DNA from: a virus
Taxonomy: Duplodnaviria > Caudoviricetes
Virus record (IMG/VR): IMGVR_UViG_3300021426_000077
Coordinates: 36,428-100,427 of that record
Length of the DNA stretch: 64,000 bases
Direction: 5' to 3' (one strand)
The translations under genes were made by a program, and so were the position numbers. Shown piece after piece: positions 48,413 to 60,419 of the stretch; positions within the stretch are counted from its first letter, which is position 1, and each line of letters opens with the position of its first letter. The notes under the pieces are model-generated. The model was not told where the DNA came from, did no database searches, and saw only the letters and a program-made list of their open reading frames with translations.

Positions 48413-49609
48413 TTACTTAGCCTTGAAATTCCAAACAGGGTACATATGAGCTATAATATCTGCATTAGGATGAATTGCCTGGATGATCGCCTCCGCATCC
48501 TTATATGCCATAGGAGCCTCATCGAGAGTCTCCTCGACTACAGAAGAAGAAGCAATACCATCCATTGCATTCTGAAAATCCTTAAGAGTCAACTGATTGC
48601 GGGCCTGCCCTCGCGACATGACACGACCAGCACCATGCGGCAATGAGCAGTTCCAATCCTCATTTCCAAGAGAACGAACAATGAGAATTCCATCGCGCAT
48701 ATTCAGAGGGATAAGACCAATCTGACCCTTATATCCCTCAATAGCGCCCTTGCGGATAATGTGATGATCAACATCTACATAGTTATGAATACAAGTAATC
48801 TTCTGCGGATCAAATGCCCATCCCATATACTTAGCAACCTCACGATAGATTGCCATATGAGAGCGATAAGAAAACTCGTTGCAAATCTTCATATCATGGA
48901 GATAGTGCTCCATATCTTCACCCTCAAGATAGCAAAGATCATCCGCAGGCTCAGCCGCAATTATCTCACGGCAAAGCTCAATCCATCCCTGGATACGATC
49001 AACACGATTAATTGCGCGAAGCGCTGCAATTCCCATCTTCTGATGAAGTCGATGCTGTTCTATACGCTCATTGCGACGATCGATTGCAATCTGCTGATAA
49101 TACTCAGCAATCTGCTTTCCAAGGTTGCGGGATCCGCAATGAATTACAAACCAATACTGATTATACTCAGAATTATAATCAAGCTCGAGATAGTGATTTC
49201 CACCACCAAGAGTTCCCATAGACTTGCGGAGACGATCATGATTCTGCAGGTAGTCCCAGCAGTAAAGATCCTCATATGGAAAATCTACAGAAAGCTCATG
49301 CTCAACAGAACGAACATCAAAGCCAGTCGGGATATACTCTCGACAAACCTGATCCAGATACTCGCAATCAATATTATCAGAGTTAACAAGAAAAGCAGAC
49401 ACACGGCAAGCAATATCTACGCCTACGGTGCCAGGAACAATCTTATCCTTAAACTCAATGGTCGAGCCAACAACCGCACCCTTCCCCGCATGAGCATCAG
49501 GCATGATGCGAATCTTAGAATCTCGATACGCAGGAGAATTAGCAAATGCGTCAATCTGCTCAATGGTAACAAGGTCATTACCAACCATAAAGTTCTTAAG
49601 ATCAGCCAT
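48413..49609 (-). CDS. rtcB: RtcB RNA ligase
   Basis: IMPDAHAGKG, VGVDIAC, GTLGGGNHYLE, HCGSRNLG, HNY, RKGA, SLPHGAGR, LDEAPMAYK. Confidence 0.96.
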   Translation of the reverse strand: MADLKNFMVGNDLVTIEQIDAFANSPAYRDSKIRIMPDAHAGKGAVVGSTIEFKDKIVPGTVGVDIACRVSAFLVNSDNIDCEYLDQVCREYIPTGFDVRSVEHELSVDFPYEDLYCWDYLQNHDRLRKSMGTLGGGNHYLELDYNSEYNQYWFVIHCGSRNLGKQIAEYYQQIAIDRRNERIEQHRLHQKMGIAALRAINRVDRIQGWIELCREIIAAEPADDLCYLEGEDMEHYLHDMKICNEFSYRSHMAIYREVAKYMGWAFDPQKITCIHNYVDVDHHIIRKGAIEGYKGQIGLIPLNMRDGILIVRSLGNEDWNCSLPHGAGRVMSRGQARNQLTLKDFQNAMDGIASSSVVEETLDEAPMAYKDAEAIIQAIHPNADIIAHMYPVWNFKAK

Positions 49610-50209
49610 AATTCTCCCTCTTTTCTCATTTTCTTTAATTATATTATAACATAAAAAAAGAGCTTCTGTCAATAATTATCTTACCGACAAAAGCTCTACA
49701 ATTTAAAGATCAAGTTTATGAATAATATCTTCGTAAGTAAAATGATTATCAATCATATCTTTAATGTGAGGAATTTTACCTTGACTGTAGTAATCATTAT
49801 ACTTATCCCAAACCTTTGTAGTATCATTGAGACTATATCGTCCAGGGATTGGAACTGCATACCCCGCAGAGCCGTCACTTTCGGGAAAAAGCTGATAAAG
49901 CTGACGATTTTGCTTAATTGCATACTTCATTTTCATTTATTTTCCTTCCTATATGTGACGTTTAATTAGCTTCTGGTAGAAGATTACTTGGACTTCCATC
50001 ATACTGACTAATTGTAAATCCTTGCGGAAAACGCAACTTAATAATTACTTCAGTATTTGCCGATGCAGGAAATTGACATATATCTTCATCTTCCCTATAG
50101 ATTTCAATTTCAGATATTGCGCCAGAGTAAGCCTGATAAGTTTCATCTGAACCATCTGAAAAAGCTACTGCAACAATTGCATCTCTTACTCTCTTAAATT
50201 TCTTCATAC

Positions 50210-50773: not shown

Positions 50774-52577
50774 TAATATTCCTTATCTATATTTAGTAGT
50801 TGGAATTAAATCAGTGGCGATACTAATATATTTATTGCCTTCTTTTTCTGAATGATGAACAAACTGATACCCGCAATGTTCGACTGTATCCAGAAAATCT
50901 ATAAATTGACCGTAAAAATCTATTTTTGTTTCTCGATTCCAATTTTCTGGCGGATAAGTCTGAATTCGTTGAAACCAATTATAGCGTTTAATTAGATAAT
51001 CTTTATCTACATAACGATCAATTTCTTCTTTATACGCCGCATCTATACGATTAGCAATCATATAAAGATATTTGTAAGGAGGACAACTTTTACTTTCTTC
51101 ATTCCTAATAAAATGATCTGCCCATTCCCGTAGCTCTTTTGTAATAATCATATGTGTACTCTTTCAATTTCCAGTGGTCACAAAAATTATCAAAACAAGT
51201 TGGTCTTCCAGTTCTCTCACAAGGAAACCAATAAAGATCTTTGCCTTTATCGTATTGAATGTGTCTTAATTGAAAGAAATGACAATTCTTACATGTTTTT
51301 TCCATCATTATAAATTTTTCTTGTTTTATGATTTAGTTTTTCTTCAATTTTGTCTAATCTTTTAGACAAACGTCTTATATTGTACCAAAGGTTATATACC
51401 TCATGGTTTTCTAGCTTTCTAACTCTGTGAGCTAATTCTCAGAAATCTCTATCGGTTATCATATGACACCTTCTCAAAATTACTTATAAAAAGCATAAAC
51501 TTCATTATTTCTTGTATCTGATATATAGTTGCTCTTCCAATAATTTCCCATTTTCCTTCAACATAAAAAATTGTAAGATCCTTATTAAAGCAATGGAAAG
51601 AAAAAGAATCAAATTCAAGAAACTCTAGAGAGCTACAATTCTTTGCAAACCAACTATAAATTTCTGAAAACTGAAAATCTGCCCAATCATTCAGAATAGC
51701 TTCTGAAAATTCATAATCATTCAGCATATCAAAAAATTTCATTATTTCAATAGGAGAAATGTTAGTTTCCATCTTTTTCCATTTCTTTCTTAATGTTGCG
51801 GATTTTGCGGGAAAGCTTACGAAGGACGCCATTGCCTTCACTGTTTTTACCATTTGCCATTAGTCGGTCATATCGGCTCTGAGTTGCCGCAAGTTCACTC
51901 TGTAGATTTTTAGAATTCATACTCATACTCCTCTTCAAACCAGAAATTCGTATAAAAATAATACATAGGGTCAGAACCAATCCATACATACTTACTCATA
52001 GGAACTCCTTTCCCTTTTTTTCTTTAATTATATTATACCATAAAATATAGTCATGTGTCAACTACTATTTACTACTTATTCGGCACATATTTTGAAAAAA
52101 AGTCAATCTTTTCTCTAAAGAAAGGAAGGCCAGAACGTTCTGCTTCATATTCAGTAAATCTGTCTTGAAGAAATACATTATCTATCTTGCCGCAAATTGG
52201 ACAATACGAACCCCGCACATAATGTACAGAATCACTATAATATCCATAAATAGTAAGGATACAATCAGTATAAAGATGCTTATGATCACTTTTCTTTATC
52301 TTTTTCTTAGACTTTTTCTTTCCTCGGATAGGTTCCTCGGGAAGTTCTGTGTATTTATATTTAAGTTTTTCTTCTTTCCATTCAGACGGCATTGTTAACT
52401 CCTTCTCTTGGAAATTATTGATTTTCTTTTTCTATTATATATTATAACATAAAATTTAATTTTTGTCTATATAAAAAAAGAGCCTTAGATAAAATAAATT
52501 TATCTAAGGCTTTTAATTTTTTTAAAATATATAGAATATTTTTTTATTTAATTTTATAGAATTAATTATTATTTATT

Positions 52578-53189
52578 TTACATTAAACAAGGAACAATTA
52601 CAGTATAATTATTTGCTGGCAAAATAAAATATCAGCGTCCTTCTTCTGTTTCAGCTTTTCCTACTCTAGATTGATAATCATAAATTAGAGAAGAATAATT
52701 TTTTTCAAGAAAATCTTCTTTAGAAGGATAAATGTTAATACCTAAATACGGCGAATATGTATTAAGTTTATGTGGACTTTCTGGTATATAACATATGATA
52801 CTACCTGGTTTAGCTTTGCCAATAAAATAAATACTAGAATCATTCATTAAATTTTTAGTCATTTCAATTGTGTTATCATTTTCATCTTTAAATTCACCGT
52901 ATATAGAGTCTGAATATTCAACTCCACCACCACCATACATATCTATTGTAACTGCGAATTCAACTAGTTCTTCTTGAGAATCGTTATTATCATTGTTATT
53001 ATTATTAATAGGATTATCTATATACATAACTCATTGATTATTGTTATTACAGATATATGTATCTCCTGTATCAGCCACGAGAGCAGTAGAAGCAGGTTCT
53101 GCTGGTAATTTTTTTAAATCTGCTATATTATCTACAAAAAACTCATGAGTTCCTAATACAGCATTGGCACTTAAGACTTTATAAGCCAT
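52578..53189 (-). CDS. constant-N/variable-C putative virion protein 1 (TGA=Trp)
   Basis: MAYKVLS...THEFFVDNIADLKKLPAEPASTALVADTGDTYICNN..W*VMYIDNPI. Confidence 0.75.
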
Positions 53190-53232
53190 AATATCACTTC
53201 TCCTTTATATATTAATTATATATTAAGAATAA

Positions 53233-53955
53233 TTAAGAAACGTCCACACGGAACTTGAACGCGAGGTGCAGTTGTTCGGCACCAGCCCTCCGCAAGAATG
53301 GAACCTTGTAGAAATATCCACTAGCGTTTTGTTCAATGGGATATGAACCGTCAAGGTCCCCCATTCCCTCGATGACGAACGTCCCGGTGCCCGTCGTTTT
53401 GTCATAGCTTGTCGGAAGCTCGATGACCTCGGAGACTTCCTCGTCCGCGTCATCGTTCTCGAATACGTTGAGAAGGAACGCTTTCTCGATAAAACTTAAG
53501 GTATTTGTACGGGGAAACACGGCGAAGGCATGTGGACAAGGGCACAAACCGGTATTGGTTGCGGATACACACGTGAAATAGTTACCGTTCCTGGCATCTT
53601 CGAGAGAAATGGAAAGTGCTCTAACCTTGCCGATCATGTTCTCCCTCAGAATATCGCCCTTTGCTGGATCGGCGTTCACGTAACAAAGCGGCGCATTGAC
53701 CCAGTAATCGCTCTTCTGAATAACAAAGCCGTCACCAGCATCCGTATCACTACTGCTGTCTGAAGTATTTTCAATAGGATTGTCAATATATATAACTCAC
53801 TTACCTGCATTATTACAAATATAAGTGTCTCCAGTAGCAGCAACTAGCGCTGTTGATGCAGGTTCTTGCGGCAGTTCTTGTAAATTTTCAACATTATCTA
53901 CAAGAAATTCGTGAGTATTTAATGCAACATTAGCACTTAAAGTTTTGTAAGCCAT
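53233..53955 (-). CDS. constant-N/variable-C putative virion protein 2 (TGA=Trp), GC-rich C-terminus
   Basis: Same N-module; TGA at 53797-53799; in frame with track ORF 53233-53679. Confidence 0.75.
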
Positions 53956-54074
53956 ATTATTTCTCCTTTATATATATTAATTATTTATTAAAAATAAAAT
54001 AGGTTTACGACGGACTTCTTTATCGCGTCGTAGAGCCAGTTGGGGAGAGGGTAGACTTTGGTCATGGTGCCTCC

Positions 54075-55046
54075 TTAGTTGGAGTACTTGATGTAGATTT
54101 CGGGGAAGGTGCCATCGCCCTCGTAGGGCGCTGGGATGTTCGCCAGATTGAGCGCGAGGAACTTGTTCCCCCCGAAGCCCGTCCGTACCTCGTAGGAGGT
54201 GTAGGCTGTCTGCTCGATGATGTAGCCACTCTGCTCGTCCAGTCCCGTGATGGTGCGGAGGTAGACGGCCTGCACGGTCTTGGTTGCGCCGAGCGGGATG
54301 TTCAGCGACGTGCCCTCGACAGCCATGTTGAGCGCGGCCATGTTGAACGTAGCGATGATATTGTCGGGAAGCGTCATTTGCCCTGCTGGTGGATAGTCCC
54401 CAGCATAAATTCTGTCGACGGGCACAGCGTCGCCGCCCATGTAGTCGCTCGGCTCGTCGGTGCCCATGTCGATGTTGACATAGTTGCCGAAGCTCGCACC
54501 CCCGCCGCCAGAGCCTTCCACTTCCACCTTGACGGTGTGGGTGCCTGCGATCTGGGTAGCGATGTAGTTCTCGTTGGTGCTATTGCTGGAAATGGAGAAT
54601 GGAATCGTGGAGAAGTCGACTCTGCCGTCGACAGTTGGAGCGCCGTAGTAGTTAGCGCCCTCTTCATCATCATGTCTCTTCTGGCATGTGTACGTCGTGC
54701 CGTCGAACGTCACGTAGATGGTGTCGGCGTCGATGTACTGCGAGTAGGCAAGCTCTGCCTGCGCGACTGGAAACTCGCCCTGCTGCGCTGTCGTAACCGT
54801 CTCCTCGAACAGCACGGTCTTGAAGTTATTGTCTGTATTATCGCCATTATCTGGCGTATTTCCAATAGGATTATCTATATACATAATTCATTGTTTATTG
54901 TTATTACAAATATATGTATCACCCGTGTTAGCTACCAGGGCAGTTGATGCGGGTTCTTTAGGTAAAATTTCTAAATCTGCAATATCATCAACAAAAAATT
55001 TATGTGTATTGTGAATTGGGTCTGTTTCTAAAATTTTATAAATCAT
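54075..55046 (-). CDS. constant-N/variable-C putative virion protein 3 (TGA=Trp), GC-rich C-terminus
   Basis: Same N-module; TGA at 54888-54890; in frame with track ORF 54075-54884. Confidence 0.75.
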
Positions 55047-55171
55047 ATAATTTTCCTTTCTGTTGGGGAAAAATAATTTTACTATATAAATTAAAAATTA
55101 AGTTTAAATTTTAATAAAAAAAGACCCTTATACGAAATGTATAAGGGTCAATATAAACAGAGTATCTTCTG

Positions 55172-55242
55172 AGGCCATATTCAGAATCGAACTGAAGACA
55201 GGGCATTACAAGTGCCTTATTATACCATTTAACTATACGGCC
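55172..55242 (-). tRNA. tRNA-Thr(TGT)
   Basis: Cloverleaf; GGCA-CTTGTAA-TGCC; TTCGATT T-loop. Confidence 0.8.
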
Positions 55243-55263
55243 GCAGAAGATACTCGATATACT

Positions 55264-55340
55264 TGGAGATAACGAGAATCGAACTCGTGTCCAGGCATTT
55301 TCACTTTGGCTTTCAATGCCTGTCGAACCCATCTATCCCC
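55264..55340 (-). ncRNA. mini-tmRNA (tRNA-like domain only)
   Basis: GGGGATA...TTCGAC AGGCATT-loop-AATGCCT GGAC ACGAGTTCGATTCTCGT TATCTCC A; G3:U70 pair. Confidence 0.75.
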
Positions 55341-55575
55341 ATTGGAGCGGGCCACGTTTCAGTACCATCTTACTAGTCGTATTCTAATCCTTTATAAAAT
55401 CATGTCTAGAATTAATTTTATAAATTAAGGTACACCCGCATATAAAAATGACAGGCCCAACCCTATCTGGCAGAGGATTACCCCTGGAGTTTCCCAGCTT
55501 TCACAGGTGACTAAAGTCATATATGCGACCAGGTGGAGAGCCCATTATACCTGCGGGCTCGCTGTTATTGTCATA

Positions 55576-55649
55576 TGGCTGGGACTGAGAGAATCGAACT
55601 CCCATTAGCGGAACCAAAATCCGCGGTCTTGCCGTTAGACGAAGTCCCA
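55576..55649 (-). tRNA. tRNA-Gln(TTG)
   Basis: GCGGA-TTTTGGT-TCCGC; encoded CCA. Confidence 0.92.
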
Positions 55650-56532: not shown

Positions 56533-56542
56533 ATTTATATAG

Positions 56543-56672
56543 TCGCGGATATATTTAAAACAGTATAATATCGTGCTCTACCTTTGAGCTAAGTAAACAT
56601 TTGTTTACTATTGGATTCGAACCAATAACATCGCCTTTAATCAGAGGAAGTAACTGTTTTACCATCACGCAA
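56543..56672 (-). ncRNA. YrlA-like RNA with circularly permuted tRNA domain
   Basis: T-arm, then loop-closed acceptor AGTAAAC-AAAT-GTTTACT, then D-arm, inside a TGAT..TACTTC terminal stem. Confidence 0.7.
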
Positions 56673-56675
56673 TAA

Positions 56676-57055: not shown

Positions 57056-57718
57056 TTAATCTGTAGCATATTTTCATTCATACCCGTATGCAGTATGACG
57101 CTGATTTTGATTTTTACAAACTCTACCAATGCAAATACTAATATTATTAAGCTGACCTGTTGAGATTTTTTGATCATAAACCCATTGAGCAGCTTCTCTT
57201 TGAGAATTAAAACTTTTTATTATTTGCCCGTTTTTTAAAGCAATAACCTTTTTAGAATTTCTTTTATGAGCATTAATTTGTGTATTTTTAATACCAGAAT
57301 TTAATAATACTCTATGAACAGTATCAGAATCACATTCAAAAACATTACAAATTTCTTTAATTAATTTTCCTTGAGAAAACAAATCAATCATTTTTTGATA
57401 ATCTTCTAAAGAATAAGTCATTCTTCCATCTCCGCCTGGAGTGGCATTATACCCTTTAGAATAACTCCCATAATAATTTATTCAATAAATTTCTCTATCT
57501 GAAAGAATTGAAATATCGCATTCTTCAATTAATTCTATATAAAAATGTTCTGAACCATATTTATTAATTGCTCGATACAAAGGTCTATGTTCATAATCTC
57601 GTCTAGGAGCATCTTTAAGATGTTCTTTAAAACGATCTTCTATCGTAGGTAATAAAGTTTTACCAATATAAACCTTATCATTAATATCATTTTTTATGAT
57701 ATAAATTTTTCCAATCAT
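57056..57718 (-). CDS. GIY-YIG homing endonuclease with NUMOD1-like domain (TGA=Trp)
   Basis: GKIYIIKN...VYIGKT...RFKEH...REIYW*I...GYNATPGGDG...TAYGYEW*KY. Confidence 0.9.
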
Positions 57719-57819
57719 AAAATTTACCTGCCAATCTTTAATATTTTTCTTTATTTTAAATAAAAATTGGCAGGTTTTTATAATAAAAACTTGCCCAATT
57801 TTGGCAAGTTTGCCAAATT

Positions 57820-57911
57820 CACGCCCTGAAGGATTCGAACCCTCACCCGAGGTTTTGGAGGCCTCTACCCAGGTTTTGAAGACCTGTGTGCTACCATTAC
57901 ACTAAGGACGT
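57820..57911 (-). tRNA. tRNA-Trp with UCA (opal-reading) anticodon arm plus a second CCA anticodon arm
   Basis: ACGTCCT TA GTGT AATGGTA GCAC A CAGGT-CTTCAAA-ACCTG GGTA GAGGC-CTCCAAA-ACCTC GGGT GAGGG-TTCGAAT-CCTTC AGGGCGT G. Confidence 0.85.
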
Positions 57912-57914
57912 ATA

Positions 57915-57990
57915 TGGTCGCGAGATGCTGGTGTTGCTCCAGCTTTCTCCGGCTTATGAGACCGGATCAGATACTGACCTGCCATCCGCA
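57915..57990 (-). tRNA. tRNA-Met(CAT), atypical
   Basis: CCGGT-CTCATAA-GCCGG; T-loop AGCAACA; CCA end. Confidence 0.7.
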
Positions 57991-58689: not shown

Positions 58690-59791
58690 AACTGCGGCGG
58701 AGCGAGTCACCGCAGTAGAATTCTGTGTTTTCGGGTACACAGCAACCGCCCTTCCTCGGGGATAAGGTAGTGCTCTAAGTCACAATCATGGGCATCACAC
58801 CCTTCTTGTCAAGTGGTTTAATTTAATAAAATTAAAGCTTTAGACAATCAATTGCTACCAACTCCTTTTCAAAGAATTAAGCACCTATACCTATGACCTT
58901 AGAGAATTAGTTTAAATCCAGGTTCACCACGTGGAGGTTTCTCTATGAACCCATACGCTTTCTTTTGGTATCCTCATGCGGGATCACCTAGGGCAAGAAA
59001 GCTTAACTAGCCCTGACCTTGGGGATTTCCGGACTCCCGCAAGGAACCTTTATTCAGGTTTATTTTCCATCGCCCTGTTACGATGCGGTCATTTTTTTTT
59101 AAAGACGAGAAAGCCCCGTGTAAGAAAACTCGTCTATACGTTGCATCACCAATATCCTTTCTGGCACCATACCCGCTCTCGGGTAGGGGCGGACTCGAAC
59201 CACCAATGTATAGCAACGAGACACTACTGAGATCACGGATAAGGCGTAGCGTCCACACTCCTTAGCGACTCCATTTTTTTATTTTTAGTCCTTTGTCGCG
59301 CTCGGACTGACTTTGGTTTTACTTCCCACGTCAAAAGAAGGAGCTTTGGTCAGAAGCTCATAAAAACGACCTGCTAGCTAACATCATGCACCTGTTTTAG
59401 CTTAAAGGTTCTGCGCGGTAAGCATGATTTCCGCAGACGCCATCTGATTCCCTCAGTGAGTATAGATAAAATGCCCCACCAGCAATGTCGTCTTTCTTTT
59501 TTAGCTTAAAGTCTGAGGAAACAGGTTAATACTCAGACTTAGAAGTGATTTTAAAGACCTACGCTTCTCACGGTCTCAAAGGTGATATTATAGACCTACG
59601 CCTTCAACGGTCTTAATTGGCTTAGCAACTTTCTGTGCTGGTCCAGTCGTATCGTTCTATCCAGCCGCCGTTTCCGAAGGTAGCTACTCCTTCATCTGGA
59701 ACTGCTTATATGGGGACACGGATTTGTACCCCATACCTATATCGTAGGTGTTGCGTCTCTCAGAGAATTTCCGCGGTTACTCTGAGTCCCC
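58690..59791 (-). ncRNA. candidate large or multiple structured ncRNA(s)
   Basis: No credible ORF; elevated GC; many hairpins including a GTTCGAGT T-arm; strong promoter at 59828-59857. Confidence 0.55.
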
Positions 59792-60419
59792 TATTGCCAA
59801 TTTATTCTTTTTTCATTTTCTATATATATTATAACATATTTTATTGTCTCTTGTCAAGAACTTTTTTCTAGCTTTGATTATCTGTGTTTAGAAGATAATC
59901 ACCACCTTTCCTTGACTTTCTTTAATTATATTATAACATATTTTTTATTCTATTGTCAATCTTTATTTTTTGGATCAGATTGCCCTTCTTGTGAGACGAA
60001 AAGAAGATACCTGCGGCGCTTGATCCCCGCTCACTTTACTAGAATATTTATCGTCTACTAGTCTAGACTAGATGCCTTTCACATCAGATATTTCCTAAGA
60101 AGTCTCTCAACTTCTTTAATTATATTATAACATAAAATTATAACATATGTCAAATATAATTTTTTGTCTAATTGAAAATATAATATTTATCTAAGGTTTC
60201 TGGCGCTAGCATTGTGCCAATTTTTTCTATAGTATCTTTATTCATTACAAATAGATCATCTGTAAACATAGCAGATAAATCTTTAATCCATCTTTTTTCA
60301 TTAAAAGTACAATTTGGATGTCTTAAATTTTGCTTAAAACAATAATCAAATATATATTGTTGTTTTGCTATATTAAGAAGATTATCTACATCTTGAACAC
60401 TTAAATTACTCATAATAAA

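Follow-up and report, generated by a model that had tools for sequence, protein, structure and literature searches.

A tRNA-like-domain-only mini-tmRNA without a tag reading frame in the tRNA array of a TGA-recoded gut phage

The tRNA-like domain (TLD) of a tmRNA, without pseudoknots or tag reading frame, is encoded at 55264-55340 on the minus strand of the window, the 64 kb of phage DNA analysed here. This 77-nt mini-tmRNA is a conserved, covarying RNA gene in a phage tRNA array and is under selection. By analogy with a similar mycobacteriophage RNA, we consider it most likely that, as an RNA chargeable with alanine, it competes with host tmRNA for SmpB and stalled ribosomes and that tagging is thereby reduced; we put the probability of this reading at about 0.55. 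The class of TLD-only tmRNAs and the idea of an SmpB decoy are already in the literature, and this gene is a genuine further example rather than a new kind of RNA.

The window forms the final 64 kb of an IMG/VR virus record of 100,427 bp that is estimated to be 72% complete. The phage nature of this virus record is seen in its tRNA array, its GIY-YIG endonuclease and the giant ORFs that appear when TGA is read as sense. The fraction of the record in ORFs of at least 100 aa is 0.60 under table 11 and 0.90 with TGA as a sense codon, with frames of up to 2937 aa, and the phage clearly reads TGA as sense. The mini-tmRNA and ten tRNAs lie on one strand, with the mini-tmRNA placed between tRNA-Gln and tRNA-Thr (Table 1).

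An earlier note on this DNA, made from the sequence alone, had listed the hallmarks of a tmRNA TLD. All of them are present on the minus strand, including the 7-bp acceptor with G3:U70, the discriminator A73, the stemless D-loop, helix 2a and the T-arm. The D-loop GAUGGGUUCGAC is what we take, from published structures, to be the SmpB-binding elbow. The gene has the standard order, with a complete TLD, a short-looped helix 2 and no CDS. The Rfam tmRNA model RF00023 matched the 77-nt RNA at 56.8 bits (gathering score 47, E ~1e-19), in line with the assignment made in that note. The alignment spans the full model (positions 1-374), and the 296 positions of the pseudoknots and tag region are reduced to 6 nt. 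Pseudoknots PK1-PK4 are absent, as had been claimed, with the corresponding model positions deleted. The strands of helix 2 are only 15 nt apart, and there is neither a resume codon nor a tag reading frame ending in a stop. The missing ~300 nt comprise PK1-PK4, resume codon and tag frame, so the mRNA half of trans-translation is impossible for this RNA. A covariance model built from 33 mini-tmRNA copies (R1) scored it at 73.5 bits, and its folding beat 200 of 200 shuffles (z = -3.5). ARAGORN, run on the window, made no tmRNA call at this position, which is expected because the program requires a tag peptide. Neither ARAGORN nor Rfam RF00005 called the 77-nt RNA as a tRNA, while ten neighbours are called. 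Reading of the 3' end revealed no encoded CCA after A73.

Table 1. Features of the mini-tmRNA gene and its immediate neighbourhood (window coordinates).
Feature	Position	Strand	Description	Basis
Mini-tmRNA gene (TLD-only tmRNA)	55264..55340	(-)	77 nt; G1 = 55340, discriminator A73 = 55264	
Acceptor, 5' strand GGGGAUA	55334..55340	(-)	partner UAUCUCC at 55265-55271; includes G3:U70	read directly
Stemless D-loop GAUGGGUUCGAC	55322..55333	(-)	12 nt; 3' end UUCGAC	alignment to tmRNA consensus
Helix 2 with cap, whole	55293..55321	(-)	7 bp: AGGCAUU 55315-55321 / AAUGCCU 55293-55299	
Helix 2 capping loop	55300-55314	(-)	15 nt; stands in place of pseudoknots and tag frame	
GGAC linker	55289-55292	(-)		consensus alignment
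T-arm ACGAG/UUCGAUU/CUCGU	55272-55288	(-)	5-bp stem, loop UUCGAUU	consensus alignment
Spacer	55341-55575		235 nt; between tRNA-Gln and mini-tmRNA	
tRNA-Gln(UUG)	55576..55649	(-)	upstream array neighbour	ARAGORN and Rfam tRNA
tRNA-Thr(UGU)	55171..55242	(-)	21 nt downstream of mini-tmRNA; last array gene; CCA not encoded	ARAGORN and Rfam tRNA
Intrinsic-terminator-like hairpin	55123..55149	(-)	11-bp stem, 7-T run	consensus scan

Close relatives of this copy came from pattern scans and not from blastn, in which the sole match of the 77 nt to 50,697 phage records was that of the T-arm to a tRNA-Ser. Four loci share the acceptor, T-arm and loop: a 125-kb IMG/VR contig (L128), two contigs of one rumen Bacillota MAG (L134 and L142) and a Bacillales MAG (L138). 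Each of the four copies lies in a tRNA array whose order is partly that of this phage. L128 and L142 carry in the array a tRNA(UCA) with the same ARAGORN label as the one in this phage and look TGA-recoded; no tRNA(UCA) was seen within the examined stretch of L134 and L138. CCA is encoded in all four, unlike in this copy. Nearly all variation within the five-member clade falls in helix 2, where both bases are changed in three pairs and one base in two, and the loop core AAAGCCAAAGUGAAA is invariant. Identity to L128 is 91.5% in the gene and 84-85% in the tRNAs, and the flanks are unalignable; the mini-tmRNA is the best conserved element that the two share. The compact form is kept in four relatives with compensatory changes, which refutes a recent deletion private to this phage. 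An att remnant is excluded by the presence and pairing of both TLD halves. Both cases had been named in the earlier note as telling against its reading.

The wider family was collected by running a degenerate compact-TLD pattern over all of IMG/VR, then splitting it by the fifth base, and by adding a sub-family pattern. The combined scans gave 206 contigs. A perfect 7-bp acceptor and 5-bp T-arm were found in 202 of these, although the pattern fixed neither. The compact form, which it had been proposed to look for in relatives, is thus shared by the four close relatives, and IMG/VR has at least 202 well-formed copies. These represent 136 distinct sequences with lengths of 71-89 nt. All 136 have U70 and A73, both of which had been left free in the pattern, and CCA is encoded in 53. 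Applied to 185,579 prokaryote species, with one genome for each, the same pattern matched 28 times. Of these matches, 14 were genuine, mostly on MAG contigs, and the other 14 were chance matches with unpaired stems, which serve as an internal control. With 202 copies in IMG/VR versus 14 in 185,579 species genomes, the mini-tmRNA is phage-specific.

A structural alignment of 91 distinct copies was 98.3% paired, in a fit to the model that favours pairing; pairing of the acceptor and T-arm was also counted independently by script. Fifteen of the 19 pairs were changed on both sides, and neither 500 shuffles nor any slid register approached the observed pairing (0/500). G3:U70 is kept in 91 of 91 members. 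The T-arm is 100% paired over the 91 members, with compensatory changes in four of its five pairs. In the D-loop, GG and UUCGAC are invariant, the latter having been part of the search pattern. A search for a conserved protein neighbour in 90 loci found no universal partner, the best cluster being head proteins at 10 of the 90 loci. In about ten lineages of unrelated phages (L004, L079, L118 and about seven more) the mini-tmRNA lies between the prohead protease and major capsid genes. In this group it is on the coding strand, in the interval from Peptidase_S78 to Phage_capsid and downstream of the portal gene, a position that places these copies inside the late structural operon and not in a tRNA array.

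Within the present locus, the strong terminator-like hairpin downstream of tRNA-Thr presumably ends the transcription unit of the tRNAs and mini-tmRNA. Eight array tRNAs encode CCA; tRNA-Thr, tRNA(UCA) and the mini-tmRNA do not. The spacer upstream of the mini-tmRNA was considered as a coding piece or second RNA and rejected. It folds no better than shuffles (z = -1.0), it is unconserved in L128 and it had no Rfam match at E up to 1; lacking both significant structure and conservation, it does not hide a coding piece. The promoter-like site 55408-55381 matches the consensus at 10 of 12 positions and an RNA contig passes through it, so no separate promoter is claimed there.

The earlier note had also pointed to a separate coding piece or an smpB gene as things to look for in the genome. 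Searches of the 100-kb record, which is ~72% complete, found neither: there was no smpB (PF01668), no second tmRNA, no permuted or two-piece tmRNA (RF04321) and no separate coding piece. Model R1 found no second mini-tmRNA in the record, and no RF-1/ArfB domain (PF00472) was found there. The mitochondrial tmRNA model RF02544 matched nothing in the record, and nothing in the control genomes either, so this search is not validated. Since the record has no smpB, all protein partners of the mini-tmRNA must be supplied by the host.

For transcript evidence, we mapped contigs from three metatranscriptome runs and a goat-gut DNA run. The stretch is present in its probable source run, an animal gut metagenome, and in the goat-gut run. 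RNA-library contigs from two studies cover the whole gene, at 55240-55572 (depth 3.2) and 55242-55451 (depth 6.2). These contigs bear on expression, whose absence had been named as a refutation, but they cannot resolve the mature 77-nt RNA, where it ends or how much of it there is, and DNA may be present in such libraries. Both contigs end at the 5' end of tRNA-Thr (55242), a weak hint of RNase P processing there. The coding stretch at 51600-55200 is mostly without RNA-library contig cover, and lack of cover proves nothing. A relative in the goat gut has lost 55345-55448, 104 nt starting 4 nt beyond the 5' end of the gene, but keeps the gene itself. The deepest RNA-library contigs of the 9 kb examined fall on an ORF-free region upstream of the tRNA array, at 59127-59797 (58978-59798 in one run). 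In three metatranscriptome runs from two studies, these contigs are 602-825 nt long and reach depths of 33-92. On the minus strand, the region is closely preceded by three sigma-70-like promoters with perfect 12/12 matches (60153-60124, 59959-59930 and 59857-59828), and Rfam gave no family match to the region at E up to 0.1.

The surroundings hold further RNA-related elements. The tRNA(UCA) at 57819-57912 (-) is unusually long (92-94 nt), has a second stem-loop and no encoded CCA, and carries the ARAGORN label 'SeC'; it is likely the UGA-decoding tRNA of a TGA-recoded phage. In the goat-gut relative (run X3), 850 nt of 57064-57915 are swapped for 124 other letters. The replaced stretch contains the GIY-YIG endonuclease gene (57056-57718) and tRNA(UCA), so this endonuclease/suppressor-tRNA unit is strain-variable, as expected of a mobile cassette. 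Between tRNA(UCA) and tRNA-Glu, a Tymovirus tRNA-like 3' element model gave a sub-threshold match at 57915-57985 (-) (32.3 bits, gathering 40), which may mark a further tRNA-like RNA of the array. A sub-threshold match to YrlA (Y RNA-like) lies at 56539-56673 (-) (34.9 bits, gathering 69, E 4e-5) and aligns to L128 at 74%. Genes nearby, translated with TGA as W, encode RtcB (7e-59), a SpoU methylase, a metallophosphoesterase and the GIY-YIG endonuclease. The first three lie 6-10 kb away, and the observation also covers 48413-49672 (-). Together with the YrlA-like match they look like a phage RNA-repair island.

A TLD-only tmRNA was known before. Hudson et al. 2014 list 'Mycobacterium phage DS6A (TLD only)' (PMC4131195). 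According to the summaries in PMC4131195 and PMC11915505, which cite Mao et al. 2009 (RNA Biol 6:355), the endogenous tmRNA of E. coli is strongly inhibited by a DS6A-like molecule that consists of the TLD only, perhaps because SmpB is titrated, and chargeability was not required for this effect. The 2025 tmRNA database, by its own account in PMC11915505, holds nine 'standard, no CDS' sequences and repeats the DS6A case. The novelty implied in the earlier note is thus lost, the DS6A RNA having been known since 2009, and its suggestion of an SmpB decoy fits these accounts of a similar molecule (PMC4131195, PMC11915505).

Model R1 located the DS6A RNA (locus L122) at JN698994 28478-28557 (+) with 63.6 bits. 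This RNA is unannotated in the GenBank record, and neither Rfam at the gathering score, applied to the whole DS6A genome, nor a first regular expression returned it. R1 recovers both the window RNA and the DS6A RNA at E <=1e-12, with nothing else above the E = 0.1 level in 125 kb, and both RNAs fit the 91-member structural alignment. Since the architecture is the same, the window RNA belongs to the DS6A class. Both are phage-encoded RNAs of ~77-80 nt with a full TLD, G3:U70, A73, a stemless D-loop, a short looped helix 2 and a T-arm, without tag frame or pseudoknots, and both phages carry an RtcB-type ligase. A small CCG-N4-CGG hairpin lies in the loop of the DS6A RNA and of most family members, whereas the present clade has the invariant single-stranded AAAGCCAAAGUGAAA. 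The DS6A gene is solitary and lies between gp33 and a DNA polymerase III gene of a standard-code actinophage, whereas the present copy belongs to the tRNA array of a TGA-recoded gut phage. The DS6A RNA is below the Rfam gathering score and the present RNA above it.

The bacterial one-piece tmRNA (RF00023) has the same TLD, with the alanine identity pair in the acceptor, UUCGAC in the D-loop, helix 2a, GGAC and the T-arm, but has ~300 nt more, comprising PK1-PK4, the resume codon and the tag frame. The mitochondrial tmRNA of jakobids and oomycetes was reportedly described by Jacob et al. 2004 and Hafez et al. 2013. By the account in PMC11915505, CDS-less tmRNA is the only tmRNA of jakobid and oomycete mitochondria and some plastids, co-occurs with SmpB and is thought still to help with incomplete mRNAs. 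Like the present RNA, these organellar forms (RF02544 in mitochondria; ~65 bp in Mallomonadaceae plastids, PMC11915505) are a TLD without tag frame, with a presumed SmpB-dependent, non-tagging role. They are, however, the only tmRNA of their cell and usually circularly permuted, whereas the mini-tmRNA has the standard order and belongs to a virus, in whose host a full tmRNA is to be expected. With tRNA-Ala the mini-tmRNA shares G3:U70, A73, the 7-bp acceptor and the T-arm, so the same synthetase is expected to act on it, but it lacks the D stem and anticodon arm that tRNA-Ala has.

The mini-tmRNA keeps the parts that, from established knowledge of tmRNA, contact AlaRS, EF-Tu and SmpB. We propose that it would be co-transcribed with the tRNAs and excised by host RNase P and 3' processing enzymes, that the host CCA-adding enzyme would supply CCA, and that host AlaRS would charge it with alanine through G3:U70 and A73. 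The elbow of D-loop and T-loop, together with helix 2, would bind host SmpB, and in excess during infection the mini-tmRNA would compete with full-length host tmRNA for SmpB. The competition would probably extend to EF-Tu and to stalled ribosomes with an empty A site. As a result, the ssrA degradation tag would be added to fewer nascent proteins, among them those of the phage. A chain transferred to the mini-tmRNA could not gain a tag, since there is no resume codon. That U70 and A73 never vary among 136 distinct copies argues for the importance of alanine charging, which would be needless for a pure sponge. Since inhibition by the DS6A-like molecule is independent of chargeability, a pure SmpB sponge leaves the conserved alanine identity unexplained; this invariance suggests an additional or different step on the ribosome.

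Such a step is central to the main rival of the competitor reading, which we regard as possible, if on the unlikely side: productive rescue without tagging. Alanyl-mini-tmRNA with SmpB and EF-Tu would enter the stalled ribosome and take over the nascent chain, which a host factor, either peptidyl-tRNA hydrolase after drop-off or an ArfB-like hydrolase, would release with one additional alanine and no degron, so that ribosomes are freed and phage proteins spared. The constancy of U70 and A73 (136/136) and of G3:U70 (91/91) is what would be expected if charging and peptidyl transfer matter, and CDS-less tmRNA is by the account in PMC11915505 the sole form, with SmpB, in jakobid and oomycete mitochondria and some plastids. 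However, the phage record has no release factor or ArfB-like protein (PF00472 negative), so release would rely on the host, and the sole experimental statement, as given in PMC4131195, is of inhibition and not replacement of tmRNA function. The competitor and rescue readings are not mutually exclusive. A target outside translation, with the RNA serving as a decoy for host nucleases or defence factors such as RNase R or as part of the RNA-repair island, seems quite improbable. It can draw on the RtcB and SpoU methylase genes and the weak YrlA-like hit near the array, on the RtcB-like ligase of DS6A and on a staphylococcal phage anti-CRISPR that is reported to employ tRNA and tmRNA fragments binding RNase R (PMC11662646). 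But RtcB is 6 kb away, no protein gene is a regular neighbour (best cluster 10/90 loci, head proteins), and the conserved part is exactly the AlaRS/SmpB/EF-Tu interface of tmRNA. Frequent integration of phages into ssrA, whose 3' end they carry, and the lack of an encoded CCA in this copy could point to a dead remnant, either a recently collapsed ssrA copy or an att fragment. This reading is close to refuted: the 5' and 3' halves are both there and perfectly paired; the form is shared by five clade members, in which helix 2 varies by compensatory changes and the loop is invariant; identity to L128 is 91.5% despite unalignable flanks; covariation in the family is strong; and the goat-gut relative kept the gene despite the 104-nt loss 4 nt beyond its 5' end.

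The earlier note had tied the RNA to reassigned UGA codons, proposing that it protects proteins whose ribosomes pause there. The phage is clearly TGA-recoded, its mini-tmRNA shares the array with a UCA-anticodon tRNA, and the same pairing occurs in L128 and L142. Against this, the first 120 carrier contigs mostly have ORF coverage of 0.85-1.0 under the standard code, at GC contents of 0.31-0.71, and just 23 of these 120 have a same-strand tRNA within 500 nt of the mini-tmRNA. DS6A is a standard-code mycobacteriophage, and the examined stretch of L134 and L138 has no tRNA(UCA). Since most carriers look standard-code, the mini-tmRNA needs no recoding as its raison d'être and is a general phage device. 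The proposed link to UGA is not borne out, and we hold a recoding-specific helper to be improbable; a special use at UGA in this lineage would be at most co-option, which is possible but unsupported. A broader and rather doubtful scheme would have mini-tmRNAs act as alanine-charged agents that turn tag-and-destroy into tag-free rescue, by peptidyl transfer to the Ala-TLD and hydrolytic release. They would have been recruited in the TGA-recoded lineage for stalls at UGA under competition between suppressor tRNA and RF2. In that case the loop AAAGCCAAAGUGAAA would make a specific contact, SmpB and the decoding centre being two candidate partners.

To the known class this analysis adds the compensatory changes within the clade, the invariant loop AAAGCCAAAGUGAAA, the RNA-library evidence and a test against the recoding idea. 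IMG/VR contains at least 202 well-formed copies, compared with nine 'standard, no CDS' sequences in the 2025 tmRNA database as described in PMC11915505. Since ARAGORN misses such genes and the Rfam cut-off also misses that of DS6A, phage annotations under-report mini-tmRNAs. Mini-tmRNAs are common in phages, and the copy in this window is an ordinary one. Collectively, the compensatory changes, the relatives and the presence in RNA libraries make it a well-documented phage RNA, which would be aimed at the ribosome-rescue and protein-tagging system of the host.
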